From assembly GCA_050273025.1 (NCBI GenBank), contig CP158635.1, positions 11,594,001 through 11,658,000 on the forward strand: a stretch of DNA of 64,000 nt, in the 5' to 3' direction. The notes under the pieces are model-generated. The model had not been told where the DNA came from and searched no databases. It saw nothing but the letters and a program-made list of their open reading frames with translations. Positions 7,001 through 61,432 of the stretch are shown one piece after another. Position 1 is the stretch's first letter; the number at the start of each line of letters is the position of its first letter. The DNA comes from Cenococcum geophilum. Lineage: Eukaryota. Position numbers and translations under genes: made by a program.

Positions 7001-7488
7001 ATACTATAATGCTAAGAGATCTAAGGGACCAGATTTTAAGGAGGGAGATAAAGTATAGCTACTATATAAAAATTTTAAAAGTTAATAACTAAGTAAGAAG
7101 TTAGACCATATTAGACTAGGACCTTTTAAAATTATATAGAGGATTTCACCGATTATATTTAAGTTAAACCTACTAGCTAAAATAAAGATCTACCCTATAT
7201 AGCATATTGCAATACTAGAGCCAGTATATAGGAATATTAAGCTACTAGTCTATAAGGCAGACACGTATAGAGGACAGGAAGAAGATAAATGGCAAGTTTT
7301 AAGGATTATTAGTTATAAGGACATTAACAACAAAATATAGTATAAAGTAAAGTAGATAGGCTATACCAAGACTACCTAGGAGCTACTAGAGAATTTAAAG
7401 AATGCTATAGGAAAGGTATAGAAGTATTGGAAGAAAATAGGTTAGGCAATATTAATAAAGAAGGATTATTAAAGAATAAGTTACCTAA
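4060..7488 (+). pseudogene. pol: pol of A1 (PR-RT-RNaseH-IN-chromodomain) in the -1 frame relative to gag
   Basis: LIDS 4180; VYLNDII (YLDD) ~5140; YNIYNKELL (YDIHDKELL) ~5694; IISDRD ~6595; AYYPQTDG*TERLN 6681; chromodomain ~7281-7406. The 3' end is approximate. Confidence 0.93.
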
Positions 7489-8056
7489 GGGGGACCCAGG
7501 AAGAGCGACTGCTAAACTACTTAGAGTTGTTCCCCTTACTATAGGAAGAAAGTTAGTTCTCTTATTACCTAGTTCCTACAGACCCTATTCTATAAGTTTT
7601 TACTTCTTAAAATAAACCTTCTTACGCACCTTCTTAAGACGAAGTAGACGGGCAGACGCCGCAATGTAAGTATTTAGGGCCTTCTATTCCGTATCCTAAG
7701 AACGCTTAAGCTTAGCAAGGGCCTATACTAGGTTACTATTAAGCTTTGCAGCAGTAGATTAAACACGAAACCCTATAACAAATTACTTAGGGAACTTAAA
7801 AACTATTAAGAGTTATAGGACGCGTATACTTAGCGTTAGAAGTAGAGCGAATATTGTAAGACGATTAAACGTTTGCTTTAGTGCACTCTAAATAAAAGGA
7901 AGGTTGCTAAGATAAAGGACTTACTAACGTAATATATACTAACCCCTCTTTTAAGCAACAAGAACATAGAGATAGTATTATTTTACTAAGCGATAATATT
8001 GCAGCAATAGTGCAAGCACGACGTTGCGTGTGTAAAGAAGAAGAAGCTTTAGGTAT
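7372..8056 (-). pseudogene. Antisense intron-containing ORF of A1: putative Zn(II)2Cys6 plus coiled-coil protein
   Basis: Homologous to 32166-32847, 49098-49802 and 60338-61043. De-RIP consensus is C-x2-C-x6-C-x13-C-x2-C-x8-C, a ~55-nt intron, then ARLLRLEKVRKKVRSKEQKLIEQGLQEL. Confidence 0.7.
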
Positions 8057-9814: not shown

Positions 9815-10245
9815 AAGATAGGAGAAAGCTTAGAGGAAGATTAGGGGCTTAGAGGAGACATTTAGACACTCGTTTAATTGCTAAGCGTTGATTTAAACAC
9901 TCATTTGGCTACTGTGACTTTAGAAATATTCGTATATAGGTAATCTACCATACAATTATTGATTTTAAAAAGCTTCACATATTTTTGATATTAAGGTATT
10001 ATGAAGCTCGCTGCCAAGACGGGGAACCTCATACTAATCCGTATGAGGGTCTCCGCCCGAGAGGCGTCACTAGTAAGGCGCTAACCACCGGATGCGCCTG
10101 GGTGCTGTAGATGTGCGTTGTTTTCAAAGCGGTGTTCCCGCACGGACTTACTCGGTGGATCCTGACGTGCCACGCGAGTGACAAAAAAATTGAGAATGCA
10201 AGCGAGAGGAACGTGGTTAACGGGGTTTTGACCGCTCCCTAGTTA

Positions 10246-11635: not shown

Positions 11636-11759
11636 TACAGTAAAACCTCGCTACACCGTTCAGCTCGGGAGTAGGGGGTTTGAACGTTATGCCGTATGGA
11701 AACATTATATTGCGAGCTCACTTATTAATCGCTGCAAGGGGCTAAATCAAGTCTTCTCT

Positions 11760-31462: not shown

Positions 31463-32165
31463 TATAAAGTCCTAACTTAAAGAAGCTTAGTATAGAATTA
31501 ACTTTCTTAAGACGCTTAAACTACGTATATAATAATACAAACAGCAAGCCTTTATAAATACTTAGACTATATAAAGTCTAAGCCTTTAGATTACTATACT
31601 TACCTAGACTATTACTAATAAAAACACCGCTACTAGCTGTAACGGAGCCTTATAGTAGGAACTACGGTAGACTCGTTAATGGGCTAGGTATATAGGTATT
31701 GCCGGAAGTTAACAACGTAATAACAACTGGTGGAGTAGTTGCCCAATAAATTAACTCTAATTGTATTCTGAGAATTACTATAAGGAAGGAACTATCTAGG
31801 TAGGGACTAAGGGTCCTTAAATATACAACCGTACTCCTATAAAATCCTTTTTATACGTAATATACGTGTTATATATAAGGTATATAAGTTCCTTTTATTC
31901 CTCTTATTTAATATATAGCACGTTATAAAACCTTAGCTACTATTTCTTATTACATAGTTCCACGGGTTCTATTCTAGACCGTGCTTATATTAACTAACTA
32001 GCTTCTTCCAACTCTTCTCTAAGTAGTCGTAATATTATACTTAAAGCGTCCGTAATACTATCCCCCTCCTCTTTATTTTCGTCCTTAAAGATACCTAGCA
32101 TCTCTAAGTCGTTTACTAGAGGTGTAATATCTATCTAATTAATTTAGTTAACGTTGTTACTTATA

Positions 32166-32847
32166 ATACCTAAAGCTTCTTCTTCTTCACACGCGCAACG
32201 TTATACTTATACTATTGCTATAATACTATTGCTTAGTAAAATAATGCTATCTCCGTGTTCTTGCTGCTCGAAAAAGGGGTTAGTATATATCGCGCTAGCG
32301 AGTCCTTTATCCTAATAACCCTCTTCTTACTCAGAGTACACTAAAGCAAACGTTTAATTATCCTATAACGTTCGCTCTACTTCTAACGCTAAATATATGC
32401 GTCCTATAACTCTTAATAGTCTCTAAGTTCCCTAAGTAATTTGTTATAGAGTCTTGTGTTTAATCCACTACTATAAAGCTTAATAGTAACCTGGCGCAAG
32501 CCCTAACTAAACTTAAGCGTTCTTATAATGCGGAATAGAAGGCCCTAGATACTTATATTACGGCGTCTACTTGTTTACTTTATTTTAAGAAAGTGCGTAA
32601 GAAGGTTTATTTAAAGAAGTAGAAACTTATTTAACAAGGTCTGTAGGAGCTTAATAATAAAAAAACGGATTCTCTTCTAATAGAGAAGGAAACAACTCTA
32701 AGTAGTTCGGCAGTCGCTCTTCCTAGGTCCCCTTTAGGTAACTCGTTCTTTAGTAATTCTTTATTAATATTACTTAACCTTTTTTCTTCTAATACTTCTA
32801 TACCTTTCCTATAGCATTCTTTAGGTTCTCTAGTGGCTCCTAGGTAG
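32166..32847 (+). pseudogene. Antisense Zn(II)2Cys6/coiled-coil ORF of A2 (exons 32166-32394 and 32450-32847; 208 aa)
   Basis: As read: (M)PKASSSSHAQR...SPCSCCSKKGLVYIALASP...SSYSEYTKANV*LSYNVRS. Removing 55 nt ending in TAG restores the frame into the helical region. Confidence 0.72.
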
Positions 32848-34237
32848 TCTTATTATAGCTTATCCACTTTACTTTATACTATATTTCATTGTCTATATCC
32901 TTATAACTAACGATCTTTAAAACTTACTATTCGTCTTCCTCTTACCCTTTATATATATCTGCTTTATAAACTGGTGGCTTAATATTCCTATATACTAGCT
33001 CTAGCATTACAATATGCTGTATAGGGTAGATCTTCATCCTAGCTAGTAGGTTTAACTTAAATATAACTAATGAAATTCTTTATATAATTTCGAAAGGTCC
33101 TAGTCTGACATAGTCTAACTTCTTACTTAGTTATTAACTTTTAAAATTTTTGTATAGTAGCTACACTTTATCCCCCTCCTTAAGATCTAGTCCCTTAGAT
33201 CTCTTAGTATTATAGTACTTTTTTATTCTTTACTATACTACCTTAGCTATTTCTATAAGGTCTATATAAAGATTTATTAAACTCTTTATTCTTTACTTAG
33301 CTATACTACTTATCTTCTTTACTTAACGTAGCGATAATAAGGTCCTTGGCTTATATCCGTAATTCGCCTTAAATAGTAATATGCCTATTCCTTTTTATAG
33401 TGTTATATTGTATATAAACTATATAACTAGTAATAGCGATACCTAATTATTCTATACGTAATTAATATAATACCTTAGATACTGCTCTAGTGTCTAGTTT
33501 AATCTTTCTATTTAACCGTCTATCTGTGGATAATATGCGGTAGAAGTTGCTACTTAAACTTCTTACTCTGCTAAGAATACTTCCTAAAATGCTGCTACGA
33601 ATCTTAGATCTCTATCCGATATAATCTTGCTTAGTGCTCTATATCTTATAAATACTTCTTTAATATAGATTCTAGCGACATCTTCTGCTGATATTTCTTC
33701 TAAACATGCTATGAAGTATCCCCACTTTATAAGCTTATCTATTATTACTAAGATCGCGTTATAATCTTATCCGGTAATAGGGTCTTTTAACTTTAGTAAC
33801 TTAATAATAAAGTCCTATAATATAACCTCCTATAGTCTCTTTAGTATTTCAATAGATTATAGCTCTCTATATAGCTTATACCTCGTTAGTTTATTCCTTT
33901 AGTAATCTAAATATTCTTTTATAACTTACCTAGCTAGTCCCTAGATTCTATTGTGGTGGTGTAGATTGGACGTCGCCTACTGTCTTGGCATTTTTCCTAT
34001 ATTTATAGAGCCTTCGGCTTCCTTCCTTCTTCCCTCTATCATATATACAGATATATCACGACCTTACCAGTTACCAGAAATACACTCTTTTCTTTCTTTC
34101 TTTCTAACTGATTATGACTAACTAACTGACTGACTGACTGACTAACCAACTGACCGACCGACCGACCGACAGACTAACAGACTGACGGCACTGTGACTTT
34201 CCTATCTTAGAGAGGTCGTACCCTCCCACATATTTTA

Positions 34238-34254
34238 TGGCATTCCACGTGGGG
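34238..34254 (+). promoter_or_regulatory. tRNA primer-binding site of E (candidate tRNA-Arg)
   Basis: TGGCATTCCACGTGGGG starts 8 nt after the LTR. Its reverse complement CCCCACGTGGAATG-CCA looks like a tRNA 3' end with discriminator G. The isotype is an inference. Confidence 0.65.
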
Positions 34255-34851
34255 ACGACGGCAAGCTCTTTAGATTAGAAGTCTGGCACTCTATACACAA
34301 CTCTATACACAGGAGACACGCAGGAACATACTACGACTACAGAAGAACCGCCAGCTGCAGAAGAACGACCAGCTGCAGAAGAACCGCCAGCCAGACAGAC
34401 GAGACAGCAGAAGCAGAGAACCAGGCAGTATCGGACAGCAAGGGGAACCAGGCAGTCCCTAAACAGAAAGACAGCGGAAAAGACGGACATTAGACTCGAC
34501 GCACAGGCCAAAGAGTGGCAACGGTCTCGGAAAGTTACGTACAAGGACGTCAAGCGAACCAACGAGCCAATCAGACGACGTCGACTGGCAGTCGGAGTTA
34601 CCCGATATCTCACCACCTGCGCGCGCACGAGCATGGCCAGAGCTTTGTTGAGGATGCAGAGACAACAAGCCAAGAGCCAATCAATCAGATGGAAACGAGA
34701 TCTAAGGCATCTAGCGGCAGAGGAAGTCAGCACTGCCCTTCAGGAACAGAAGAGAGAATACCAGCCAAGGTCGCAAGCACACGAGATCGGATCTGTCCTT
34801 GAAAGCTTCCTATTCTGGCTTAGCTTTATCCTCTTTCGAGTCATCCGGATT

Positions 34852-36951
34852 ATGTCAGCAGCAGCTCTAGAGGCGTTCCGTGAAGAAGTAGATGTAAGTA
34901 AAAGTAAAAGGCTTAGCAGCACCCTACCGCGTGGAACGACGACAGGCCAAAACAGATGGACGTACCGAGACCCGGTGGCAGTAGGTGATGAAGATTCCGT
35001 GCTCTCCCAGGAAGACCCCCCCTCAGGCATCAAGAAGCAGGTGCCTTCCGTTAGGGATATGGCTATACAAGTAGACCAGCCGCAGCATGTACCTATCAAG
35101 GTCCCGCCAGGACAGCCATCTGGGACACCCTCTGTCAAGACCACGGCCATGCAAGCAGACCTACCGCAGCGTTCACCCGTGACACCTAGGACCGATGACC
35201 CTTAGTAGACGAAGGATGAGAGCCGCAAAGACCACCTACAAACTCCCAAGGAAGCTCTAGATGCACGCAATTAGCAGTTAACGGCTTAAAACAAGATCTA
35301 CGTTGTGACCCAGCCTATGCCAGCCCCAGGAACTATTGGAACTCCGTACTTTATAGGACAGGACGTGTCATAGTTTATTGAGCAGTACGAACGACTATGC
35401 GCCCGATATCACGTCACGAGCAAGGAGAAGCACCAGGGTCTTCCTAAGTACTGCGATTACTGGATAGGGATGTAGATCCGAAGCCTGCCTAAATTTACAG
35501 CTGGTGACTGGATAAAGCTTATAAGAAAGCTTAGGGCAGAATACCGAGGAAGCGACTACTTTCGACAAATGGAAATAGTAGAATTCTTAGAGGCCTACGT
35601 ACTATAGTGTAGGAGTAGCCTACCTGGCGTGCGCGAGTACTGTAAGCAGTTTACACTAATCTCCCAAAGGGTTACGGAGGCAGGCAATCTAGGGAACGCT
35701 TAGCGAGGGTACTGGTTTGTAAAAGAACTTCCGCTTAAATATTAAAGATATACTATAGCCAAGACGGGAGCTGATCCCGATAGACAAGAGTCCTTTGACT
35801 TCTATCAGCTATAGAGGGCCGTAGAGGACAGGCTTAGTTTATATAAGGGCGCAGATCGTCTGCCGAAAATAGACCCTAAGGAGCAGAGCCTTCGTTAGCT
35901 GGTTTAACAATTCCGCAATCAGCAGCCGGTTTAAAGGGATAAGATCAACTGTTGGAGGGAAGGAAGACTTCTTAACCTAGCTAGACCAGGTATACGCAGA
36001 GGAGCCCTAATACAGCAGCAGTCACCGATCACAGATCAGGCTACAGTTTAAAGCCCAGTATAAGGATATAAAGACTGGCAGAACAGCACCCGACCTCTAT
36101 AGGACTCTTAACCTCCGTAAGACCCTTAATATCCGCAAGACTATCAATATCCGCGGGATTCTACTGCCTTTGGACGGCCGCAGCGGGACATATGGGGTTA
36201 GCAAGGTACGCGAGGACAAGGCCAACGGACCTGTTCTGGATGCGGAGGAAGTCATCGTTTTACTAAGTTCGAATGCCAAGGCCTAAAGGATCTTATCCAG
36301 TAAGGACTTATACACCTGTCTAATCAAGAAAGGCTAGTAGCGGGGACGCGCGATCGACCTAGACCTGTACTTCCATGGCTCGGCAATGAAGGACGATTGA
36401 AAGGTATTAAGAATTGGCTTCGTACGTACTAAGGAATAGACCTAGATGGGCAGGCATATCAGAAAATAGAAGGATAAGAACAGACGTAGAAATAGGCCCC
36501 TATGGTATAGACGGATTTTACTACTTTCCATAACGGAGTAGTGCTAAAGAATATTAACAAAATGCGTACGAACTGGGAGGACTACTATTAAGTACGGCCC
36601 ACGGACTCAGTAGTAACGCCCAGCCAGCAACGTCCGCAGACTCGCCCGACCCTTAGAGACAGCCGTGTGACCAGGACAGCCATTGACTTGCAGGCTCCGC
36701 AGCAGGTACCGCAGGCTCCGCCGCAGGAGAAGAATGTACGACCGAGAGATTATATCCAGATTAGGTCACGGCCTGCGGATAAGACAGCTGAAGCTAGGAA
36801 GAAGAATGAATTGTCTGATCCTTAGAGATAGTCTTAGAGACAAACGCTTGACCAGCAGGCTCCGCAGCAGGCTCCGCAGCAGGTGTAGGATGTTTGACTA
36901 AGGGACAGTCAAGTTCTAAGGTGGGGGAGGGGATGCAGGTGACGGCCGTAT
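34852..36951 (+). pseudogene. gag: gag of element E
   Basis: MSAAALE... continues through RIP stops to MPAPGTIGTPYFIGQDVS*FIEQYERLC...GLPKYC...DWIKL; variant knuckle CSGCGGSHRFTKFEC ~36232. The end is approximate. Confidence 0.75.
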
Positions 36952-37095
36952 AAAAGATTTCTATTTATCTGCTTAATTACAGTATTTCCTAAAGCTCCTT
37001 TTCTTGTTTATTTTCTTAATTACAGCGCGTCGAGACACGTCAGTCGCGACGACCTACCGCAAAGATGTCAGTTTAGCTCACCGCCTGTTACCGAG

Positions 37096-37138
37096 CCAAT
37101 AGCGATTTTCCATCCCGGGGATGGAAAATCCTGATTGG
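37096..37138. other. Conserved hairpin/palindrome shared with the Copia D elements
   Basis: CCAATAGC-GATTTTCCATCC-CGG-GGATGGAAAATC-CTGATTGG; copies at 47930-47972 and, reversed, at 63669-63711. Confidence 0.9.
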
Positions 37139-40100
37139 TCCATTCAGCAATAGAGCCGGCAGAACTCTACACCGCCCCTGGAATTCGATGATGCAGCTGC
37201 GCGATAAGAACGACACCGAGAGCCTCAACTGATTGCACGGATACAGAGCCGATTGTACGATGCAGAGCTAGACGCAGAGCTGCATGCAGAGCCTTGATCG
37301 AACGACTGCACGGAAACCTTGATCAATCGAGTGACTGCACAGAAGCCGCGACTGGTCGAGGAAACGAATCAAGCCAGAGCCTCGATGTCAGCACGTCGCC
37401 GTCACTGAATCGAATCAGTCGAATGTCGTCAAATTAGAGCCTTCGACCGGGCCGACCTTGTTCCTTAATCGAACGACGACTGACCGCAGCACGACTGCCA
37501 CTGCTATCCGAATTCAGTACTGCGCCAGCTGCACGACGAGAACGGATACCGCGGCAAGGAAGGGACCTGTACAAGGGCAGTAGCATGATATTGGAAAACA
37601 AGCACCGCGGAAACGGCAAAGCAGTATATAAAGAGGCACTGCAAGACAAGAGAAGACAAGGATGCTCTGCAAGAGATCGTACATAGGGCACAGCTGACCC
37701 CCTTAAGCCTAAGCCATCCTCATGCGACTGAAGACAGGACCGAGCTGTATCTGGCTAAGCCAGTGAAGGACCTTGTTAAGGATTACAAGGGGAATAGGAA
37801 TATACAAGGGCAAGGGATATGCGACAGAAGTAGTCACAACAGCCAAGACGCTGCCACCGGATGACCTCGAAGATATGGATGACGGCTTAGGCAGTTCTAA
37901 GGAAGATTAGGGCCTACGGCAGCAGCCGCAAAGGCCTAAGGATGCGCCGAAGAAGCCAAGGACAAAGGCAGCCCAGAGGTGGAAGAAAAGCAGCTGTAAA
38001 AGACGTCCTACAAAAGCGCCGGGCCTGTGGTAGTGGTTCAGAGGAAGCTGCCGTTAGTGCTCGCGAAGGAGGAAGTCTTAGGACAGGTCTCTGGATTGGA
38101 CGTCTGGAGGATGCTAAGAGCCTTGATTGTACGATGCGGAGCCTTAATCGATTGCATAGATGCAGAGCTTTGACCGAACGACTACACAGTCAGAGCCTTA
38201 ATCGATTGTCTGCAGATACAGGGCCTACGGATGCAGAGCCCAGGTCGTACGTACAGCGGAAGACGCCTTGAGTCAAGCCAGAGCCTCAGTCAAATCCTAA
38301 TCAGTCGAACGCCGCCTATACAAGTCAAGTCGTTAAAATAGAGCCTTCGGTCGGGCCGACCTAATACCCTATTTAGACGTCAGTCGATTGTACGTTGTTA
38401 CAGTCAAATCGAATCAGTCACCCGTTGCCGTCAGACGTCTTCAATCAGCAGTTAAAGATCCTACAATGGCAGACACGCAGGTATGCAGGCACTAGGCCTA
38501 ACCAGGAGATCAGTATACAGCCGGAAGAACGTTTTGGAGCCTATGCGAGAGTCTCTTCCCTTAGCTGTCCCCCCCTTATCGATCGATTGCCGCCCGTCTC
38601 AACGCTTACGGATTGGTTAACCAGAACGATCTTTCCTGCAGGCATAGATACGGAACTTTACACGGAGTCTCACACGGAGTTGTATAGGGAGTCTACGGAT
38701 ATGGAGCATATAGGTGCAGAGCCTTAATTGGACAACAGTACGGCAGCTTAACTGGACGCCGATATATGCGAAGCCTTAATCGACGACAGATGCGGAGCCT
38801 TAACCGACGTACGTCTACACGGAAGCTTTAATCAGCTATCTACGGATGTAAAGCCCTAGTCGTATATGCAGCAGAAGACACCTTGAGTCAAGCCAGGGCC
38901 TCATCAAATCTCGATCAGTTGAACGCCGTCTCCGCATTTAAATTAGGACAGTCAGAGCCTTCGACTAGGCCGACTTTCTACCTTAATCAAACAACCGAAC
39001 GATCAGTTGCAGCACGTCATCGCCGACCAATTAGACAGTCTTTGGCCAGCAGTCAAGGCAGCCATACACGCATACGCGCAGACACGGACGCAGATACGGA
39101 CGCAGGATATGCAATACAGAGCTATTAATGCACAGCTAGATGCACAGCCAGATATACAGCCAGATGCACAGTCAGCCGCATAGTTAGATGCAGAGCTATG
39201 CGGACGTAAAGCTTGGCGATGCAGGGCCTGATGCAAAGCCACGGGCAGAGCCTTGACTGAGAAGCTGCGTACGATGCAGACCAATGCAGAGCTAGATACA
39301 GAGTCTTGATATCAAGCGACCAGCTGAACGATCAAATTAAGCCAGAGCCTCTGCTACCTTGATCGACTGCCCTACCGCCACCGCTGCTGCTGTCACTATT
39401 CCGTCCAGCTATTCCGACCTTGCTGTCTCAACTGACTGCTCTGTCTCTACTGTTCTAGATCTATACCGTTACTAGATCTATTTTACTGCCAGATCTACTA
39501 AATCTTTTATGCCGTCCAACTGTTCCAACCGACCTGCTCTAGGCCTAATGCTATTTTGACTATTCTACTGCTGCTCTCCCGACCGCCATACCCTACCGTT
39601 TTAATCGCCCCGCCGCCACCCGACTAGCTGCCTCCGACCGACTGCTACCGACCATTCTGTTATTAACTGTTCTGTTACTGCTACTACTGCTACTACTGTA
39701 TCAACCGACTGCTGCTGACTGACTACCATCGACCGTCTGCCGCTACCGAGATTTCTGCTACCAAAAGTTCTGCTGCCGGATATCCTACTACTTACTAACT
39801 GTTAGCGAGTTCTACCACCGACTGTTCTATCTTATTTTGCCGCGCTGACTGTCTGCTTTTATTACTGTTTATGCCACTATTACTATTACTGCCGCTACTG
39901 CTGTTACTGCTGCCGTTATTATTTTTGGTTTACTGCTGTTCTAGTTGCTACTAATAGGAAGATCGGATTTTAGCTATAGGTAACGGAAGGACACCGTAGA
40001 GCAGTTCTATGGAAGGGCTAAGGATATAGTTACCTGCGTTCGTTTAGGGATATGCTTTCTTTTATCTATTCTGCTTTTACTATACTCTCGTTTTACTATT

Positions 40101-43100
40101 CTTCTATATTATAGAACGTTAGGGGACAACGTTCTTAGTAGGGGAGGTATGTAGTGGTGTAGATTGGACGTCGCCTACTGTCTTAGCATTTTTCCTATAT
40201 TTATAGAGCCTTCGGCTTCCTTCCTTCTTCCCTCTATCATATATACAGATATATCACGACCTTACCAGTTACCAGAAATACACTCTTTTCTTTCTTTCTT
40301 TCTGACTGATTATAACTGACTGACTGACTGACTGACTGACTGACCGACCGACCGACCGACCGACCGACAGACTGACAGACTGACGGCACTGTGACTTTCC
40401 TATCTTAGAGAGGTCGTACCCTCCCACACTATTAATAATATACTCTTCTTAAAGTCTTAACACTAAGCCTATAGCTCCGTTATGTCCTTAAGTTAGTCCT
40501 TTATAAAATAACTTAATAACCTCTTTTATAATAGATCTTGGTACGTATATTACTTTTTAATTTTTATACTACTTTAAGTCTGGATCCTCTGTTTATATAT
40601 TTAGGATCTTTTATATCTAATTACTCTCTAGTAATTTATGGGTTTTCTCTTCTTATATTGCTGCGATTTTTAGATAATTATATTTAATTAATCTGTCTAT
40701 ATCTTTTCGCAATAAAGCCCCTAATGGCTTTTTATTATTTTATAGTTCTGCCTTTCTACTTAGAGTATCTACTTGTGCGTTCTCTATACCCTTAATATAC
40801 TAAATCTTAAAATGGTATTCTATAAGCATCTCCGCCTATCTAACTTATCTGTAATTAAGTTCTTTTATTATTAGGAACCCCGTTAGGTTCTTATAATCCG
40901 TCTTAACTATAAATAGTTTTTCTATACCTTATAAGAACAACCTTTATTTCTTTAATACTACAACTATACCTAATAACTCCTTATTATAGATGTCATAGTT
41001 TAGTTCTAGTAGTGTTATCTTTTAACTATAATATACTACTAGGTGCCATCCATCCTAATATTTCTATAGGAAGTACGCTTCTAGTATATAGTCTAATATA
41101 TTTATTTCAACTACTATCTCTAGCCGTGGTTAATAGATTTTAAGAACTGGCTCCTAGGTAAACAACTACTTAATCTTTTTAAACAGTTCCTTTTATTCCT
41201 TTCCCTATACCTATAGTTCTTCCTTCTTCGTTAATCTTATAAGTGGCTTAATATTTTTTTAACTATTAAGCTATAAACCTTCTGCAGTAGTTGCAGAACC
41301 CTAGAAATAACCTTAACTATATTATATTTTTTAGTTTTTGCCAATTTACTATAGCCTTAATCTTCTTTAGATCTATGCTAAGTTAGTCTAGTTTAATAAT
41401 AAATTTAACAAAATCCGTTTTCCTAGTAAAGAACTCGCATTTCTTAATTGCTACTAGCATCTGCTCTTCCTATAGCCTTTTTAAGACCTATTTAACGTGT
41501 TCTCCATGTTCTTTCTCACTTATTAAGTAGATAATAATATTATTAAGGTATACTATAACAAATTCATCTAAGTGTTCTCTTAATATATTATTAATACGCT
41601 TCTAAAACATTGCTAGTACGTTTATAAGCCCGAATTATATAACTAGTGGTTTATATAGTCCTTCCTTTAACCTAAAGGCTGCCTTCTATTTATCGCCTTC
41701 CTTAATCCTAATCTAATAGTATGCCTATCTTAGATCTATCTTCGTAAAGATTTGCACATTACTAATCCTATCTTAGATTTTGCTAATTAAGAGTAAAGGA
41801 TACCTATCCTTCCAAGTAATATTGTTTAACTATCTATAGTTAATATATAGCCTAAGTTTTCTATTCTTCTTTAATACAAACAGTACTAGATATCCTGCTA
41901 ATAACTATAATAGTCTAATATATCCTTTTCAAAGATTTTCCTAGACAAACTCCTTAAGTGCCTATAACTCTTTTTCTATTAACTTATAAGTTAGGTAGAA
42001 CCTTAGACTTATTCTTAGTTCTAGCTCTATTTTATAGTCCTATACTACATACTCTAACAGCTTTTTACTTTCTAGTAACTATAGCTTCTTACTATACTTA
42101 TAGTATCTTTTTGGTACATAACTTAATCCTTAATTAGTCTCCTCGTATATCGCTTCAACTTAGTACTATACTAACTTAGTTTATTATTGTATCTTATATT
42201 ATTATATATCTCTAATATTAACCTAACCTATAACCTAATTAATCTTTAGATTATATTCCTATAACTAAGGCATTCCTAATACTACCTTATTATTCCCTAA
42301 TGGTAATATATTAAAAGACATCTCGATTTATCTCCCTTTAATAGTTATCTAAATTAGTCCTATTTTAAAATTAATAATGCCTCCTCCGTAGGCTATTAGA
42401 TCTCCTAAAATTATTACTAATAGGTAAGGGTGCTCTTTTTGCCTATGTAGTAGCCCCATCCTTTTAACTACTATTAGTAAGATATAGTTTCTTATTACTC
42501 TACTATCTACTAATACTTTAAACTACTAATCTTACTATTTAACTCTTAGATTTAGGTGTTGTCTTTAAATTCCTTTAAGGGTCTAAGGCTTTACCACTAG
42601 CTCCCTCTAGTCCTATAGGCCTTTACTTTTCCCAACTATTAGCTACTTAATCCTATTATACTTAGCTTATTCTTTAGCTAATGCCTAGTTTACTTTTTGT
42701 CTTTAATATACTATAAATAGGTATTCTCTAGATATTCCCACCATTATTATCTATCTAAGTATTCTTCCATAAGGAATCTTCCTAGTTAAAGTATTAAACT
42801 TCCTTCCTCTTAGGCTTCTGCTAGATGCCAGCCGTGTATATACTTAGTATTTCTATACTATTATTTATCTATTATCTAGTACATCCTTATAGGGTATTTT
42901 TAATTCTTTTCCTTTAGATTCTTGTGTATCTTATATATATCGTCTACGCATACAATCTATAATAGCGTATAATATACTAAGTGCTTTAGGTTAACTCTTA
43001 ACTTGTTTTTATCCTTAAGTTTAAACCTCTATCGCACTAATCTAAACGTTATAACTTTATTCGCAGGTACTAAGACGCGCCTCTCGCTTCTCTAGTCCTC

Positions 43101-46100
43101 TAATCGTTTCTCTAGATCCTTTAATGTTATAATTAAGGCTCCTTTAATATAATTTATCGCTTTTTCTGTAATTAAGTAGTCTTAGATAACTTTTTCGTTT
43201 AACCATATATAGAAATCTTCCCACTTATTATTACGTTATTACCTATACCACTTTTAATACAGCTGCTGGAGTATATACGGTTTATCCATAAGGAAGTATC
43301 TTCTTATTACTGCGTCATGACAGCCTTTTATATATCGTTCTTTAAACCTAGTAGGAATCCCTAGATCCTCTTCATCTTCTAGTTTAGTAAGCCACTTAGC
43401 TCTTAGTATGCCTATCTTAGGTCTATTAGTAATTCTTTATATAGGTGCTCTGTCCCTTATACAACCTAATATGCTAGATCTCTTATCTAGTTTCTACTCT
43501 TACCATAAGGTAATTCTTGCTCTAAATTCCTCTATAGTTTCTTTCTTTTCGCGTTTTATAAGTGGATCCTTAAAGTCTTCTTACTTCTTAATCTTGGTAT
43601 TAAACTCTTAATCTTTAGTCTAAATATCTCGTTTAACTAGTAAGTCCTTTAGGTCTATGTATTTGTCTCCTAATCTAACTGCTATTTATATTACAGATTC
43701 TCTAATCTATAAGGAAGCTGCTTGCTTTTTACTTATAGGTGTCCTAATTCATACACTAAATTCTTAATCCCTTAGATTCTTTAATCCTAAGCTTGCTTCT
43801 AACTTAAGCTTAGCTTCAGCCTTAGTCCAACTAGGCTTTACTAGTGTTCTTATCTCGTCTTAAGAGTCTTAAATCTTACTCATCTTATCTTAAAAATCTT
43901 ATGCCGTTAGGAACACTTATCCCGAGCTTATTTATATATTCTTAAACTAAGCTGCTACCCTGCCCCATTGGTTTGCGTCTGTTATAGGTCCTTAAATATA
44001 CCTTATCTTGTCTTAAAAATCTTAGTTATCTCTTATCTCGTCTTAAGAATCTTAAGCCTTTAGCCTTTTGCCTTTATTAAGTAGTAAGCTAGCACTAGCA
44101 GTCGTCTACTTGCTTAATCGTCTCTAGATATTACTCCTTCCGTCTTATAAAGCGATAGATGCCGTATCTAATGGTATTATAATACCCGTTACTAAACCTT
44201 ACTCTATAGCGGTCTTAGTCTCTACTTCTATTACGTTATTAAGGTTTAAATACCCCTAGTTGGTTCCTTTACTGTCCTTATTACTATTAATTAATAAGTA
44301 CTTTAACTCCATTATTATTATTACTGATTATTATCCGTATATTGCTATAATATCTTAATCTAGCTTATAGAGTCGATCTTATTCTTTATCTAACTCTTTA
44401 GTTCCTTTAAGTCCTCTTAACTCTAGCTCTTATAGCCAATAGCTTGCACTATACTTGGCGTCTTTATAAATTTAGTATATGTTATTATAATAAAACGCGA
44501 AACTTCTAATTAAATATTCTTTCGTTCCTTATAGCATACTATTATCCCTCTATACGTATATATTATATACTACTAGTCTAGTTCCTTTTACTATATAATA
44601 ACTCTAATCACTTTTACAGTCTCTAGTAAAATAACCCTGTTTCCCGCAATTTATATAAGCTCCGTTTTTAAACCATTGCTTTTACTATAGAGTCCGCTTA
44701 AATATCTTCCGCTATTAAGATCCTTGGTTTAGACTATGCTCCTTAGTCCTATAATTACTTAATTCTTAACTTCTAGGTTTCTATAGTTGCTTTCCCTATC
44801 TTTTATAGGTTTCTCTAGTACTACTTAGGTCCATTAGCTCTGCGCTATACCATAGTTTCTAATTTAGCTTTAGTTATTGCGTACTCTACGTCTTATACAA
44901 CTATAGAACTCTATCCTAACCTCTCTTAATCTGTTCCCTTTAAAAGATTCTATTATTAATCTTAATCGCTTAATCTATTAATTCTCTTAGGGTGTCCGTA
45001 TCTTCTATTAGAATAATTACGTCCTAGACTTTAGCCTTAAGTCCCTATTTATACTATACTATAAGCGCCTTATCGTTTTATTCGACCTATATAGTAAGTA
45101 TTTAAAACTATATTATATACTTAATTGCTAAAGTTCGCTATATTAAGTCCTAAAGCTTTCTCTTTACTATAGTTGTTACTTCCGGGTCCCTAAATATCTA
45201 TATTAATTGTTTCGCGAATCCTACCTAGCTAGAAAACACAAATCGTACCTCTTAATTAGTAGTAGTTATTCCGTTAGTTTGTATTTCTGTTAAGTAGGGT
45301 TTAAACTATTTAAGTGCTTAACCCGTTAGGAATAGTCCTGCGTAGGCTATCTAATCTATTATTATGGCTAACTTAGCCCCTTCTTACATAACTTTAAAAT
45401 GTATTTACGTTAGGAATCCTTTAAGCTTTAATCTCTCTCCTAAGAATTATTTAATTAAAGGTAACTTAACCTTTACTGCTTTAATCCCATTAAGTCTCTC
45501 TTTAAGTATTTAGTTGTTCTTGTTTAACCTATTAACGATTTCCTATAACTGCCTAACCGTGACTAGTTGTAAGTTAGTATCTTATATACTTGTATCTCCA
45601 CTTAACCTTAAAGTGGTTGCTGCCGTTAACGGCGTTGTAGTGGCTGCTTTTAGTGGCATATTATTCGACTTCTTAAAACCGTAACCGTGGTAGTAATTGT
45701 ATAACGGAGCCTTATAGTAGGAACTACGGTGGACTCGTTAATGGGCTAGGTATATAGGTATTGCCGGAAGTTAACAACGTAATAATAACTAGTAGAGTGG
45801 TTGCCTAATAGATTAGCTCTAATTATATTCTAAGAATTACTATAAGGAAGGAACTATCTAGGTAGGGACTAAGGGTCCTTAAATACACAACCGTACTCCT
45901 ATAAAATCCTTCTTATACATAATATACGTGTTGTACATAAGGTACGTAAGTTCCTCTTGTTCCTCTTATTTAATACGTAGCACGTTATATAACCTTAGCT
46001 ACCATTCCTCGTCATATAGTTCCACGGGCTCTATTCTGGACCGTGCTTGTATTAACCAACTAGCTTCTTCCGACTCTTCTCTAAGTAGTCGTAACATCGT

Positions 46101-48565
46101 ACTTAAAGCGTCCGTAACACTAGCTCTCCTTTTCTAACTAAGCCCTATAGAAAAAAGCGTAAAGCAAAAAATCTAACCCTATTTAATAGTAAGGGATTAC
46201 TAACTAAAAAGTAAGAAATTTTTAAAATATGGGAAATAAAGATTTAAGGCGTTTTTTAGAGGGATATAAAGTGCTTTAAGACCCTAATAGACGAAGTCCT
46301 TTATATATTAGATATACTAATAGATAAGGCTTATAACTATATTAAGTATAGCCTTAATATGCTATGCATACATCTAAATAACTTAGGTAAATGGACCTTC
46401 TCTAACTAAGAGTCTATATTTGTGTATATAAGGAAGCACTATAAGACTATAGATATAACCTAAGCAGCTAAAAATAAGCTAAATACCTTAAGCTAAGGTA
46501 AGCGTAACTACTAGCCCTAGAAAGTAGAGCTTAATAAGTTAATAATTAAAGTAAATAAGACTAAGGAATAAAAAGTGGATCTGCTTAAGAAGAATATTTC
46601 CTCTAAGATAAAGGACCTAGCTTTTACCCTTAGCTGTAAAATCGGCGATACTAACTATAAAGACTGGAGCGAGTAGATAAATATATTCGCTTATAACCTA
46701 TAGAACTATACCTATTATACAAAGCTAAATACCGCTAAGCTAAGTACTGCTAGTAGCTATTAACCTATATTACTATAGAATGACCTAATAGACCTTAACG
46801 CCGTTAAGTTTAGTAGTAGTAGTAATAGTCTTCCTAATAACGTCCGAAGATATTATATAGATAATAGACTTTATATAGCGTATAGTTAACCTAGCTACTA
46901 AAAAGATGCTTATAACCCTTAGAAAAACTTAAATCCCCTTTTAATACTACCGCGTTAACCCCCTCTTAGCTACGGCGGATTCTTTAATAAAGGGGATAGT
47001 AATTAAGGCGGTAACTATAAATAAGAACATAGGTTCGGATATAGAGACCCGCCCCTATAATTCCCTTCCCTAATATAGTTTTAGCTAATAGTCCTATACG
47101 CGAACTATGGATAAGTACTCTATACTACTACTAATTATAAAACCGGCTATATTATTAGTAAAGTACCCTTTAGCATATATACACCGTTAGAGACTAATAT
47201 ATTAGAATATACTAGCTAAGACTATAACCACCAGCTAAGCCCTATAATTTAGCTATTAAAAGGCTAACCCTTAGACTAAGTCGCCTTTAATAGTTAGAAC
47301 TATACAGGGAGGAGGATAAAAGGATTAGATTTATACTACTAGATTAGTTAAACCTTATTTTAAGCTAGCTACTACTTAACCTTAAAATAGTAAATAGCGA
47401 TAGAAATGCTATCCTTATTTAAACTTACCTCTCCTTACCGTATAACCTACTCCTATAAGTTTTTATTAAAATAGTAAGTCTTATTAATACTGGTAGTATA
47501 ATACTAGCGTTTATAGATAAAAACTCGCTTATAAAAAAGTATAATATTATAACGAAAAGTGTAGGTATTATAAGGTAATATTACGTATCTACAGATTTAT
47601 AGGTAGTATAATAATTGTTATTCTTTTTCTCTCTTCCTTAAGGAAGGGCGAGGAGCTTAAGGCTTCTCGCTACGCTAGTGCCGTGGCAATACGTGACGGC
47701 AACTTGCCTATATTCCTGACACTGGCAACTCTTCTTTTACGGTTGCTATCTATATATATATACCGCTTAACTAGCGTAATAAATATTAATCCTCCTTACT
47801 TACTATTGCTATTGTAATATAAGTCTTGCTGTCTTAATATTTGCCTCTTAGCACGTAGTGCTTTCTTACTTAGAAGTTATAAGTAGATATCTTGTTAGAA
47901 GGGCCGCTAAGGCGCTAGTAGTAAGCGAGCTAATAGCAATTTTTTATCCTGGGGATGGAAAATCCTAATTAGCTGATTTAAGTTAGGGTTTATAGAATAT
48001 TATACTCCTACTCCCTTTTAACCTAATCTTTAACTTATATATATAGAGTATTTATATTAATAAACGTCTCTAGTACCTTATTTAGGTTTGCCTTTATTAT
48101 TATATTTACTGGGTTATCTTAGCTATTAATCTATTAAATCTTAAAGAGTTTTTAACGCTTATAGGATTACTAAAGTGCTATAATATTAATTATAAGGCGC
48201 TTTTTTTTGTAGTACTAAGCTTAACTAAACACTTATAGAGGGAATATAAGTTAGTATACACGATTATAGGGATAATAGGAAATTCGAGTTAATTTATAAT
48301 TATCTTTAGGGTAGTTTCAATTGCAATTGCTATATTAACTCCGCTAACTATTCTATATATCTAACACTAAAACGCTTTAAATAACGCGCTTACTCTTAGT
48401 TAAGCTCTAATAGATAAAATTACTATAGATTATAAAGTTATTCTCTTTAGTAGATTTATTTATAATAATAATCTTATATCCTAGCTAGGAGCTAAAATCT
48501 TTATTATTTATAAATAATCTATTAATAAATATAAAGAGCTTAGTAGTAGGAAGATTAATAGGCAC

Positions 48566-51500
48566 TATAACGGAACCTTGTAGTAGGAACTACGATAGGC
48601 TTATTATTAGGCTAGGTGTATAGGTAATGCAAATTAAATTTAACAACGTAATAATAACTGGTGGAGTAGTTGCCTAATAGATTAACTCTAATTATATTCT
48701 AAGAATTACTATAAGGAAGGAACTATCTAGGTAGGGATTAAAGGTCCTTAAATACACAACCGTACTTTTATAAAATCCTTCTTATACGTAATATACGTAT
48801 ACTCTATTTGCTCTATTACGGATTATATAGATTCTATAGATTCTATAGATTACCCTATATAACCTTAGCTACTATTCCTTATTACATAGTTCTATTAGCT
48901 CTATTTTAGACCGTGCTTATATTAACTAACTAGCTTCTTTTAACTCCTCTCTAAGTAGTTATAATATTGTACTTAAAGCGTCCGTAACACTATCTCCCTC
49001 CTCTTTATCTTTATCCTTAAAGATTTTAAATATCTCTAAGTTGTCTATTAGAGGTGTAATATCCATCTAATTAATTTAGTTAATATTGTTACTTATTATA
49101 CCTAAGGCTCCTTCTTCTTTATCTATAGCTCGTTGGTCTTATACCGTTGCTATAATATTATCTCTTAGTGAAATTATGCCGTCTCTATATTCTTGTTATA
49201 TAAAAAAGGGGTTAGTCTATATTACGTTAGCGAGTCCATCCTCCTAATAACTATCCTTTTATTTAGAGTGTACTAAAGCAAATATTTATTCGTCTTATAA
49301 CATTCGCTTTATTTCTAATACTAAATATACGCGACTTATTACTTTAAATAGTTGTCTAGTTCCCTAATTAATTTATCTTAAGGTTTTATATTTAATCTAT
49401 TACTGCAAAGCTTAATAATAAACTATTAGTGGTGTTGGTAGAGCTTTGTCGCTTCCGGGACGCTAAGCGTAAGGCTGCTAATATTTAGCAATAGGCCCTT
49501 AAGGCTCGCCTTGCTACGTCCACTCGGTTAATCCGTCTTAAGAAAGTATATAAGAAGGTCCGTTCTAAGGAGTAGAAACTTATAAAATAGGGTCTATAGG
49601 AACTTAGTAATAAAAGAACGGATTCTCTTCCGGCCAAGAAGGAAATAAATTTAAGTAGTTTAGTAACTACTCTTCTTAGGTCCCCCTTAGGTGATTTGTT
49701 TTTTAGTAATCCTTTTTTATTAATACTACCTAACCTAATCTCTTTTAATACTCCTATACCTTTCCTATAGCATTTTTAAATTCTTTAATAGCTCCTAGGT
49801 AGTCTTATTATAGCCTATCTACTTTACTTTATACTATATTTTGTCGTTAATATCCTTATAATTAACGATCTTTAAAATTTACTATTTATCTTCCTCCTAT
49901 CTTCTATATGTGTCTACTTTATAGACTAGTAGCTTAATATTTCTATATGCTAGTTCTAGTATTGCAATATACTATATAGGGTAGATTTTTATTTTAGCTA
50001 GTAGGTTTAACTTAAATATAACTAGTAAAATCCTCTAAATAATTTTAAAAGGTCCCAGTCTAATATAGTCTAATTTTTTACTTGGTTATTAACTCTTAAA
50101 TTTTTTATATAGTAGCTATACTTTATCTCCCTCCCTAAGATCTAGTCCCTTAGATCTCTTAGTATTATAGTACCTTTTTATTCTCTTTTATACTTTCTTT
50201 ACTAATTCTATAAGGCCTATATAAAGGTTTATTAACATCTTTATTTTTTCTTTAGCTATACTACTTATTTTCTTTACTTATTATAGTAATAATAATATTC
50301 TTAGCTTATATCTGTAATTTGCCCTAAATAGTAATATGCCTATCCCTTTTTAAGGTGTTATATTATATATAAACTATATAACTAGTAGTAACAATACCTA
50401 ATTATTCTGCGCGTAATTAATATAATATCTTAGATACTGTTCTAGTGTCTAATTTAATCTTTTCGTTTAACTATCTGTCTACAGATAATATATAGTAGAA
50501 GTCACTGCTCTAACTCCTTATTCCACTAAGAATACCTCCTAAAATACTGCTATAAATCTTAAATCTCTATCCGATATAATCTTGTTTAGTGCTCCATATC
50601 TTATAAATACTTCTTTAATATAGATTCTAGCAATATAACCTCCTATAGTCTCTCTAGTATTTTAATAGGTTGTAGCCCTCTATATGGCTTATACCTTATT
50701 AGTTTATTTCTTTAGCAATCTAGATATTTCTTTATAACTTTCTATGCTAAACTCTAAATTCCATTAATAATATACTCCTTTTAGAGTCTTAATACTAAGC
50801 CTATAGCTCTATTATATCCTTAAGTTAATCCTTTATAAAAATCTTCTATAAATCGTTCTGCTATGCTTTTTAGAATATACTTTACTTCTTAATTTTTGTA
50901 TATATCTGCTTATAGATCTTCTAGCTATACTTTTAGAATTCTTTATACCTAAAAGCTTTCTAGTGATTTATAAACTCTATCTAGTTCTTCTTAAGTTGCT
51001 GCAATTTTTGGATAATTGTACCTAATTAATCCGTCTATATCTTTTTATAGTAAAGCCCCTAATAGCTTTTTATTATTTTATAGTTTAGCTTTTTAACTTA
51101 AGGCGTCTGCTTGTATATTATCTATACCCTTAATATACTAAATCTTAAAATAGTATTCTATAAGCATCTCTGCCCATCTAACCTATCTTTAGTTAAGTTT
51201 CTTTATTATTAGGAATCCTATTAGGTTCTTATAATCCATCTTAACTATAAATAGTTTCTCTATGCCTTATAAGAATGCTCTTTATTTTTTTAGTGCTATA
51301 ACTATACCTAATAACTCCTTATTATAGATGTTATAGTTTAACTTTAGTAGTATTATTTTCCGACTATAGTATGCTATTAGGTGCTATTTATCTTAATATT
51401 TTTATATAAAGTATACCCCTAGTATATAGTCTAATGTATTTATTTCTACAATCGTCTCTAATCCTAGTTAATAGATCTTAAGAACTAGCTCCTGGGTAAA

Positions 51501-59805: not shown

Positions 59806-61432
59806 TATAACGGAACCTTATAGTAAGTACTACGATGGGCTCGTTAATGGGCTAGGTGTATAGGTAATACAAATTAAAGTTAACAACGTAATAATAACTA
59901 GTAGAGTGGTTGCCTAATAGATTAACTCTAATTATATTCTAAAAATTACTATAAGAAAGGAACTATCTAGGTAGGGACTAAAAGTCCTTAAATACACAAC
60001 TATGCTCCTATAAAATCCTTCTTGTATATAATATACATATGCTTTATTTACTCTATTATAGATCTTATAGATTATATAGATTATATAGATTATCCTATAT
60101 AACCTTAGTTACTATTCCTCGTTATATAGCTCTACTAGCTCTATCCCGGATTATGCTTTAATTAACTAACTAGCTTCTTTTAACTCTCTCCTAAGTAGTT
60201 ATAATATTATACTTAAAGTGTCCGTAATACTATCTCCCTCCTTTTTACCTTTATCCTTAAAGATCTTAAATATCTCTAAATTGTTTACTAGAGGTATAAT
60301 GTCCGTTTAATTAATTTAGTTAATATTATTGCTTATTATACCTAAAGTAATTTCTTCTTCTTCGGCTCTGCGTTGCACTTACACTATTACAGTAATATTA
60401 TCTCTTAGTAAGATTATACTATCTCCGTATTCTTATTATTTAAAAGAGGGGTTAGTTTATATTACGTTAGTAAACCTATCTTTATAATAACTATCCTTTT
60501 ACTTAAAGTATACTAAAGCGAATATTTGTTTATTCTATAACGTTTACTCTATCTTTAATGCTAAATATATATAACCTATTACTCTTAATAGTCGTCTAGT
60601 TCCTTAATTAATTTATCTTAGGGTTTTATATTTAATCTACTGCTACACAGCTAGATAATAAACTGTTAGTGGCGCTAACCAAACTTTATTATTTTTGAGA
60701 CGCTAAGTAAGAAGCTGCTAATGCCTAATAGTAGGCCCTTAAGGCTCGTCTGGCTGCGTTCGCTTAGTTAATTTATCTTAAGAAGGTTTATAAGAAGGTT
60801 TATTTTAAGGAGTAGAAACTTATAAAATAGGGTTTATAGGAACTTAGTAATAAAAGGATAGATTTTTTACCGCTAGGGAAGGAAACAAGTCTAAGTAGCT
60901 CGGTAGCTATTCCTCCTAAGTCCCCCTTAAGTAACTTATTTTTTTACAATCTATTTTTATTACTACTGCCTAACCTAATCTCTCCTAATACTCCTATACC
61001 TTTCCTATAGCGTTTTTTAGATTCTTTAGTAACTCCTAAATAGTCTTATTATAGCCTATTCACTTTACTTTATACTATATTTTATTATTAATGTCCTTAT
61101 AATTAATAATCTTTAAAACTTACTACTTATCTTCTTCTTATCCTTTATACGTATCTACCTTATAGACCAGTAGCTTAACATTCCCGTATACTAGTTTTAG
61201 CATTGCGATATACTATATAGGGTAAATTTTTATCTTAGCTAGTAGGTTTAACTTAAACGTAACTAGTAAAATTTTCTAGATAATTTTAAAAGGTCCTAGT
61301 CTAACATAGTCTAACTTCTTACTTAGTCGTTAACTCTTAAAATTTTTATATAGTAGCTATACTTTATCTCCCTCCTTAAGATCTAGTCCCTTAAATCTCT
61401 TAGCATTATAGTACCTTTTTATTCTTTCTTAT
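59806..61432 (-). mobile_element. Chromovirus family A copy 4, 3' end (subtype b), interrupted by D1
   Basis: 424-bp LTR 59806-60229, PPT, antisense ORF, chromodomain and integrase tail. Confidence 0.93.
60338..61043 (+). pseudogene. Antisense Zn-cluster/coiled-coil ORF of A4
   Basis: Homologue with acceptor TAG|GG TTT and the same 21-nt insertion as A3. Confidence 0.68.

Follow-up and report, generated by a model that had tools for sequence, protein, structure and literature searches.

At the 3' end of human T-cell leukemia virus type 1 (HTLV-1), a mammalian retrovirus, an antisense, spliced gene encodes HBZ, a basic leucine zipper (bZIP) protein with a dimerizing helix. The antisense promoter of HBZ in the 3' long terminal repeat (LTR) of HTLV-1 is cited in a review (PMC7264820) that also lists antisense open reading frames (ORFs) of plant retrotransposons, the aORF-3R, with Grande gene23, RIRE2, Retand and PvRetro13 as examples; analogous plant antisense ORFs are found in PMC4408406. 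In fungi, Boty-like Ty3/gypsy chromoviruses of Botrytis cinerea and Sclerotinia carry an additional antisense gene, brtn (Zhao et al. 2011, Virology 417:248, as cited in PMC8365987, PMC7264820, PMC4227169 and PMC5987419). With brtn, described in 2011, the antisense gene layout is already known as a kind. Here we describe an antisense gene in family A, a Ty3/gypsy chromovirus family of which self-comparison by BLAST finds four copies in a 64,000-nt stretch of the genome of Cenococcum geophilum (assembly GCA_050273025.1, contig CP158635.1, positions 11,594,001 to 11,658,000). This whole stretch is referred to as the window in the following.

We conclude that four stretches next to the 3' LTRs of family A are copies, inactivated by repeat-induced point mutation (RIP), of a genuine third gene that belongs to one clade of ascomycete Ty3/gypsy chromoviruses, and we put the probability that this gene is real at about 0.93. 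The conclusion rests on the homology of the four copies, on the intact gene structure in relatives, on purifying selection on the spliced frame and on the linkage to an antisense pol. The full statement, in which the product is also a zinc-binding dimer that acts on the element itself, has our preference by a modest degree.

A first-pass annotation, made from the letters of the window, had proposed that every family-A copy carries, between chromodomain and polypurine tract, a homologous ORF antisense to pol. The four-copy alignment, the LTR map and the orientation of pol bear this out. Pol of copy 1 is marked by Pfam matches to RVT_1 and RT_RNaseH and a sub-threshold one to SH3_Tf2-1, all in + frame 3, and runs against the direction of the claimed ORF; the ORFs are therefore antisense to pol, and they adjoin the 3' LTR in all four copies. 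The antisense stretches align over 883 columns with a mean column identity of 85%. Variable columns comprise 262 with transitions only, 48 two-state transversions and 22 multi-state columns, and this excess of transition-only columns is the RIP signature; the 64-kb window is AT-rich and bears it as a whole.

None of the four window copies can make the antisense protein. The start codon has changed from ATG to ATA and the intron donor from GT to AT in all of them; the acceptor AG is kept in three. Cysteines 1, 2 and 5 are each retained in two of the four copies, and cysteines 3, 4 and 6 read TAT or TAC throughout. Many TAA and TAG stops lie inside the antisense frame of every copy (2–3 in the 76 codons of exon 1, 7–12 in the 132–140 codons of exon 2). 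When exon 1 of copy 2 is aligned to two un-RIPed relatives, L001 and L003, Cys1 and Cys2 prove to be kept as TGT/TGC, Cys3 to Cys6 have become TAT/TAC, and 3 of the 76 codons are stops. The window copies differ from L001 at 181–213 positions, of which 128–151 are C>T or G>A. Pfam scans of the RIP-mutated window translations gave no family even at E up to 10. Stop density was rejected as a coding test, since one sense frame is equally open and real pol has the same shadow frame.

Gene structure and selection in intact relatives

A profile of the four window exon-2 translations, with X at stops, was searched against 1.84 billion proteins and matched 74 of them with E no higher than 0.001; for 25 of these, E is 1e-10 or less. 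Several of these are un-RIPed and read ..ASARLLRLEKVREKVRSKEWKLVEQGLQELGDE... 'Hypothetical protein' is the sole name in the database annotation of 20 relatives that were looked up, which come from metagenome or run sources, and likewise in the 25 rows of two further protein searches, apart from one stray annotation. A scan of metagenomes yielded 107 confirmed relatives; 80 loci were retained, and 73 of them hold 79 pairs of exon 1 and exon 2. Nearly all tblastn matches start near query residue 16, which is the exon 2 boundary. An antisense integrase or chromodomain lies within 1.5 kb downstream in 77 of the 79 gene copies; one of the other two has no room on its contig, and in the last none was found.

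The metagenome loci L001 and L003 are un-RIPed, with a GC content of 0.51. Both have an ATG, six cysteines, a 55-nt GT..AG segment at the intron and a TAG at the position of the window stop, so that the ATG, the GT donor and cysteines 3, 4 and 6, which the first-pass annotation had obtained by reversing RIP, are all present in intact DNA. The cysteine spacing is C-x2-C-x6-C-x13-C-x2-C-x8-C, and all six residues are present in L001, L003, a third un-RIPed locus (L078) and the database proteins P0086 and P0089. Two apparent extra cysteines of the window, the middle one of 'C-S-C-C' and the one in 'RRACT', correspond to Arg codons (CGC/CGT) in un-RIPed relatives and are thus RIP products of Arg codons.

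The intact product measures about 197–209 aa, and the spliced window ORF has about 197 codons. Because the TAG is invariant in the four copies and stands at the stop of L001 and L003, the window ORF extends from 32166 to 32814. The proposed start was right; the proposed end at 32847 and length of 208 aa were too long. The same stop is common to several database proteins ending in ..TP[VI]PF[LPS]. Counted from the 3' LTR, the gene starts about 108 nt inside the element; its end falls within the codons that specify the last helix of the pol chromodomain. Its 5' leader is a conserved block in relatives, where the pol frame reads TPLINDLEM..FEDEDEEEGDGVTD. On the sense strand, 32756..32943 translates as ..EDEWQV..YKVKWIGYNKTTWEPLENLKNAIGKV.., and the chromodomain (PF00385) is present in the pol proteins of relatives; it was not detected by Pfam in the RIP-mutated window copy. 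The full-length spliced-form protein P0089 lacks the first Met and has only the second (..GEIMPSC..), and the conserved ..ERRARTIAVILSLGE.. stretch upstream is kept. Either lineages may differ in the start codon that they use, or this copy may be defective.

The intron could be surveyed in 69 of the 79 related gene copies, those with matches reaching both exon edges. Its length is 55 nt in 66 of them and 61, 127 and 130 nt in the other three; all four lengths equal 1 modulo 3. The 5' end is GT in 21 copies and AT, the RIP form, in 48, and the 3' end is AG in 66 and AA in 3. By our reading of the coordinates, L078 has a 64-nt segment at the same place. Position and phase are thus kept among the relatives while length varies, and L001 and L003 differ at 11 of the 55 intron nucleotides without periodicity. 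The intron boundaries and phase that had been proposed for copy 2 were exact. Not so the CTAAG branch site, which is not conserved in L001 or L003; CTAAT, GTAAC or TTAAC-like sites are alternatives.

Removal of the 55 nt restores the frame in the window and gives ..SNAK-W-SRVQS.., the junction of un-RIPed database proteins. The intron-less junction, with ..SDAEW followed directly by SRV.., is found in five of these (P0003, P0024, P0080, P0086 and P0089). Two others, P0017 and P0081, begin inside the intron and hence derive from genomic DNA. The spliced-form proteins lie on contigs of 0.9–1.4 kb, and those looked up, which carry P0003, P0024 and P0089, originate from JGI. The best match in the scanned metagenomes to the query, whose first sequence was P0003, is 61% identical, which puts the contig of P0003 itself outside the 80 kept loci. 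In addition, a 723-nt contig from read run X8 joins position 496 of L001 to position 554 with two letters between, so that exactly 55 nt are skipped. No joint at the intron was seen in runs X6, X7 and X11, where contigs of relatives are patchy; the read runs that hold relatives, X1 excepted, share 0.04–0.07 of the words, too little to point to a habitat. We regard the intron-less proteins and the X8 contig as probable, but not proven, evidence of splicing. It counts against them that X8 is labeled RNA as a guess only and that the RNA origin of the spliced-form runs and contigs is unproven. In P0089 the reading frame also continues upstream, across the antisense polypurine tract and some 39 nt of LTR-derived sequence, which is the single hint at transcription from the 3' LTR.

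Selection was measured on three un-RIPed loci only (L001, L003 and L078), and L078 has a 1-nt frameshift; both facts tell against the result. Between L001 and L003, 27 of 38 differences in exon 1 fall on position 3 of the antisense codons (p = 3e-6). In exon 2 this is the case for 39 of 68 differences (p = 1.5e-4), and antisense position 3 there is position 2 of the pol frame; only 15 differences fall on position 3 of the pol frame. In the pol core of the same pair of loci, 29 of 36 differences are at pol position 3. The periodicity jumps across the intron exactly as the spliced frame demands. The ratio of nonsynonymous to synonymous substitution rates (dN/dS) between L001 and L003 is 0.06 for antisense exon 1, 0.23 for antisense exon 2 and 0.10 for the pol core, versus 0.73 for the pol frame over exon 2. 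With the more distant L078 as partner, it is 0.14–0.27 for the antisense gene and 0.52–0.58 for the pol frame over exon 2. Purifying selection therefore acts on the spliced antisense frame, and it is as tight as on pol. The signs that had been named beforehand as speaking against the gene were not encountered: L001 and L003 have no Tyr at the cysteine sites, lack neither ATG nor GT and show no frame-breaking indels between them, and the dN/dS of the antisense gene, at 0.06–0.27, is not near 1.

The open pol frame on the opposite strand

The first-pass annotation had treated the approximately 0.7 kb of the antisense gene as lying between chromodomain and polypurine tract. This stretch is not a spacer, because pol has no stop after the chromodomain in un-RIPed relatives. 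In L001 and L003 the pol frame meets no stop in exon 2, the intron or exon 1, nor in the polypurine tract, and it stays open for a further 120–175 nt or so within the LTR (about 120 in L001). As a minus-strand ORF, pol spans 29 to 4069 in L001 and 3784 to 7512 in L003, where it begins beyond the contig end. The tail beyond the chromodomain comprises about 290 codons and has a shared end, ..EP[VI]EP[CW]DE. An overlap of the antisense gene with the chromodomain itself, estimated earlier at the last 100 nt or so, covers approximately the final 55–60 nt.

These observations are compatible with a different view of the locus, in which the antisense gene is real and the same DNA also encodes a Pol C-terminal tail of about 290 residues that selection keeps free of stops. 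Such a tail could be functional itself, or it might only need to stay open, for example to hold the stop of the genomic RNA close to the 3' end. We judge the chances of this view to be just short of even. The other two sense frames contain 9–24 stops over the region that is open in L001 and L003, and the pol frame of L078 is open likewise except for a single 1-nt indel, by which the antisense gene is broken too. Five further pol proteins traverse the tail with 40–73% identity and have the same end, but they were found because of the tail, so that they are selected for having it and give no frequency. One of these pol proteins, P0103, has a stop-free insertion of 24 residues exactly at the antisense intron, which corresponds to the 72 extra nucleotides of the 127-nt variants. 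In shuffled sequences, the probability of finding no stop over exon 2 is 0.002–0.058 for L001 and 0–0.019 for L003, and about 0.01 over the leader plus the LTR part. The stops that interrupt the pol frame in the window (Table 1) include no TGA, and 16–22 of them per copy are a single C>T or G>A away from the codon of L001 or L003.

However, the amino acids of the tail are only weakly constrained: to the dN/dS values given above for the pol frame over exon 2 come 0.35–0.50 over the leader, where differences from L078 are spread evenly over the codon positions (26, 25 and 31). Where the tail has conserved blocks, they coincide with antisense exon 1, with the splice sites and with the polypurine tract, each of which has other reasons to be conserved. 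Furthermore, L001 and L003 are related, so that the tests are not independent. Over most of the tail, a reading as conserved protein domain was rejected (dN/dS 0.5–0.7, flat codon positions).

It is possible, although the odds are somewhat lower still, that the antisense gene lies wholly inside a pol frame that selection keeps open for about 290 codons past the chromodomain, with the amino acids drifting almost freely. If so, the open stretch would span both antisense exons, the intron (even at 127 nt) and the polypurine tract and reach into U3, as an obligate two-strand overlap. One strand would then be selected for its protein and the other mainly for its openness, perhaps because this keeps the stop of the genomic RNA near the 3' end, where the RNA would escape surveillance.

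The protein and its possible role

In the predicted product of the antisense gene we distinguish four parts: the six-cysteine domain; a helix, 75 residues long or longer, for which self-pairing is predicted; a Ser/Pro-rich linker; and a conserved acidic and hydrophobic C-terminal motif. This motif, ..SPL.DSFFGDPSLSMLPDLISSDTPVPF, is read from DNA whose other strand encodes the final helix of the chromodomain, the overlap covering the last 18 residues or so. The six-cysteine domain presumably binds zinc. The first-pass annotation had seen in it a Gal4-type Zn(II)2Cys6 cluster followed by a dimerization coil. In the model, a long helix does follow the cysteine domain. AlphaFold2, given an alignment of 22 rows, modeled the protein with a mean predicted local distance difference test (pLDDT) score of 79.5 and a helix at residues 77–151 with pLDDT 95–99. 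A homodimer model of residues 76–152 of P0086 scored 0.56, versus 0.12 for the best control; the runs agree in 100% of contacts, and the partner has a pLDDT of 90–91. Of 30 proteins solved as pairs of one chain, 21 reach the 0.56 mark, and none of 23 solved as single chains does (for eukaryotes, 17 of 29 and 0 of 30). The model thus supports self-pairing of the helix, short of showing it.

Pfam was run on seven N-terminal sequences with most or all of the six cysteines intact, the cut-offs being 21 bits for Zn_clus (PF00172) and 22 bits for DUF3716 (PF12511). Zn_clus reached 14.9 bits in L001 and at best 17.0 bits, in L003; its alignments cover mostly positions 18–37 of the 39 in the profile, and four of the seven sequences matched at E < 0.1. 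DUF3716 came closer to its cut-off, with 20.1 bits in L001 (E = 6e-4), 18.6 in L003 (E = 1.7e-3), 15.4 in P0091 and 13.6 in L078. It aligns from profile position 3 or 4 to the end (59 of 59) in L001, L003 and P0091, and from position 8 in L078; P0086, P0089 and P0090 had no DUF3716 match. A bZIP family did not appear in any Pfam scan, even at E up to 10. A phmmer search with P0086 against the sequences of the PDB gave PPR1 (1pyi) as best match, which is not significant (E = 0.56) and in which the first three cysteines of P0086 align with the last three of PPR1.

Zn(II)2Cys6 clusters have the spacing C-x2-C-x6-C-x5-12-C-x2-C-x6-8-C, and the dimerization coil of Gal4 is parallel. Measured by this, a series of points weighs against the Gal4 assignment. 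No Pfam family reached its cut-off on any of the seven sequences. The cysteine domain was modeled with low confidence (pLDDT 48–67); for an alignment of this domain alone, only about eight un-RIPed sequences are usable. Foldseek found no PDB match with E of 0.001 or less; the row that it ranks first, GAL4 (1aw6), has E = 9 and a probability of 0.02 and is not evidence. The loop between Cys3 and Cys4 has 13 residues, one beyond the range, and from Cys2 to Cys3 the sequence (AKEGLV or SKEGLV) has far less basic character than its counterpart in Gal4 or PPR1. Finally, the modeled dimer is antiparallel and symmetric about residue 115 (136 touches 90, and 115 touches 115), and such a coil would put the two cysteine domains at opposite ends, unlike in Gal4. 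The Gal4-type label is therefore not established on present evidence, and we prefer to call the domain six-cysteine, DUF3716-like or Zn-cluster-like.

The layout as a whole, with a cysteine cluster, a coil, a linker and an acidic and hydrophobic end, would be that of a small transcription activator. Tentatively, and with less than even confidence, we propose that the protein is a dimeric factor that depends on zinc and binds nucleic acid. A spliced antisense transcript starting in or near the 3' LTR would encode it, and it would control either the transcription of the element or some other stage of its cycle. That it binds DNA, that it regulates the LTR and that its transcript arises from the 3' LTR are all inferred. 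For copy 2, the presumed source of the antisense promoter would be its 3' LTR.

Another possibility, which we think unlikely, is that the gene is real but its protein is no DNA-binding regulator at all; instead, it would be a DUF3716-type module that binds RNA or protein, with possible roles in chaperoning, nuclear import, integration targeting or countering host silencing. The alignment over nearly the whole DUF3716 profile in L001 and L003, as opposed to about half of Zn_clus, speaks for such a module, as do the poorly basic Cys2-Cys3 stretch and the antiparallel coil of the model. In the ESM Atlas, the nearest clusters are unnamed Ascomycota proteins; a cluster with 28% DUF3716 members at a score of 0.77 is a lead, and no Zn_clus cluster appeared. 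Moreover, two DUF3716 proteins, REP9-1 and REP9-2, are described as products of accessory genes of a class II transposon in Zymoseptoria tritici (PMC8232023). On the other hand, DUF3716 stays below its cut-off too, a domain without known function explains nothing as a label, and the overall layout remains that of a transcription activator.

It is very improbable that the antisense frame is a mere shadow of the sense pol tail, or a chance frame in RIP-biased DNA, with no antisense protein: window stop density fails to separate it from a sense frame, every TAA or TAG can be read as a RIP product, which leaves a reader much freedom, and the pol frame is open in relatives, but substitutions gather at antisense third positions that are second positions of pol in exon 2, the antisense frame has a far lower dN/dS than the pol frame does over exon 2, the periodicity shifts by one base on crossing a GT..AG segment that always measures 1 modulo 3, and intron-less forms exist.

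The window and comparison with known systems

The coordinates of the antisense gene and of the elements that carry it are collected in Table 1.

Table 1. Positions in the window of the antisense gene, its surroundings and the four family-A copies
Feature	Position	Strand	Remarks
Exon 1, copy 2	32166..32394	+	Start (ATA, 32166-32168), conserved N-terminal stretch, six-cysteine domain; 3' end is the first base of the split Trp codon
Intron, copy 2	32395..32449	+	55 nt, phase 1 within the Trp codon; donor AT, acceptor AG
Exon 2, copy 2	32450..32814	+	Coiled coil, Ser/Pro-rich linker, conserved C-terminal motif ..SPL..FF....LLILLNLFSSNTSIPFL, stop TAG 32812-32814
5' leader of the antisense gene	32059..32165	+	On the sense strand, polypurine tract (~32059-32078) with the stretch behind it; LTR boundary placed by self-BLAST and L001 alignment
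Chromodomain end of pol	32756..32943 (approximate)	-	Final helix overlaps the last ~55-60 nt of the antisense gene
Pol-frame extension behind the chromodomain	31937..32755 (approximate)	-	No stops in un-RIPed relatives; 19-26 TAA/TAG codons per window copy
3' LTR of copy 2	31640..32058	-	Pairs with 5' LTR 45702-46122, 91% identity
Antisense gene, copy 1	7405..8056	-	Exon 1 8056-7828, intron 7827-7773, exon 2 7772-7405
Antisense gene, copy 3	49098..49770	+	Subfamily with 7 extra coil codons; acceptor AA; private 1-nt deletion near the end
Antisense gene, copy 4	60338..61010	+	Subfamily with 7 extra coil codons
Element, copy 1	LTRs 563-984 and 8167-8590	+	Self-BLAST
Element, copy 2	LTRs 31640-32058 and 45702-46122	-	Self-BLAST; split by nested insertion 33952-40433
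Element, copy 3	48566-56190	-	Self-BLAST
Element, copy 4	From 59805; likeness to copy 1 stops at 61427, inside pol	-	Self-BLAST

The four copies form two subfamilies, set apart by in-frame indels of 21 and 3 nt. The 21-nt indel, 7 codons that read ..EAAAAQQ.. in relatives, falls within the coiled-coil region and distinguishes copies 3 and 4 (49420-49440 and 60660-60680) from copies 1 and 2. L001 and L003 differ by the same indel, so both forms are old. The 6.5-kb insertion inside pol of copy 2 has direct terminal repeats of 284 bp (33952-34234 and 40150-40433) that are 96% identical. Its GC content is about 50%, versus about 31% in the surroundings; it has short ORFs only, and no Pfam domain was found in its six frames. 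It looks like a non-autonomous LTR element that arrived after the RIP episode or escaped RIP. Between the RIP-mutated repeats, a GC-rich island (49%) at 10000-12000 holds ORFs of 146–158 aa on both strands, and beyond 61427, where the likeness of copy 4 ends, the GC content is about 41% (62–64 kb).

For the window itself, the outcome is ordinary, all four copies being dead. Its wider meaning is that a clade of fungal retrotransposons has a small regulator-like protein of its own, under selection as tight as that on pol. If this protein binds the LTR, the elements would control their own transcription like complex retroviruses, which would bear on bursts and silencing in plant-associated fungi. 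The locus also illustrates that RIP-wrecked DNA can be read back reliably: the reversals at the start codon, the splice donor and the six cysteines were all borne out by intact relatives. Two further window cysteines, which the procedure left standing, proved to be mutated Arg codons. In full-text searches of about 8.4 million papers, the fungal antisense layout was found described only as brtn of Boty, and no description of a zinc-cluster-like antisense retrotransposon gene was found; nor did we find in print this domain architecture or a position of such a gene wholly within an open pol frame.

With HBZ, which had been offered as a model for the layout, the gene shares the antisense, spliced arrangement at the 3' end of a retroelement and a dimerizing helix, which here is a prediction. 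This is a likeness of layout only: no bZIP domain was found, and there is no evidence of common descent. The DUF3716 proteins of the REP9 type resemble the product in being accessory proteins of a mobile element with a cysteine-rich fungal domain of about 59 residues, which is also the best Pfam match here and matches over the full profile. They differ in that their carrier, as far as it is described, is a DNA transposon, in that the match stays below the cut-off and in that the domain has no known function.

Compared with Gal4-type factors (PF00172; PPR1 1pyi, GAL4 1aw6), the protein has six cysteines in two C-x2-C-x6-8-C halves, a predicted dimerizing helix and an acidic and hydrophobic C-terminus. 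It departs from them in its Pfam scores, the 13-residue loop, the weakly basic Cys2-Cys3 stretch, a length of only about 200 aa and a coil that is antiparallel in the model. In the PPR1 and Pfam alignments, moreover, its first three cysteines pair with the second half of the cluster.

The plant aORF-3R share position, orientation and conservation across copies with the gene described here, and their review suggests a regulatory nuclear role and flags spliced antisense transcripts (PMC7264820). In the account given there, they occur in plant hosts and mostly in elements other than chromoviruses, and they have no clear similarity to known proteins. The present gene, like an aORF-3R, lies on the opposite strand between the pol domains and the 3' LTR and is conserved like the other genes of its element. 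It differs in its defined architecture of cysteine cluster and coiled coil and in lying wholly inside the open pol frame. A nearer precedent than HBZ is brtn of Boty, which we liken to it by the published description of position and orientation, not by sequence. As described, brtn is an extra gene whose function is unknown and which, like the gene of family A, belongs to a fungal chromovirus, lies between pol and the 3' LTR on the opposite strand and occurs across the copies of its family.

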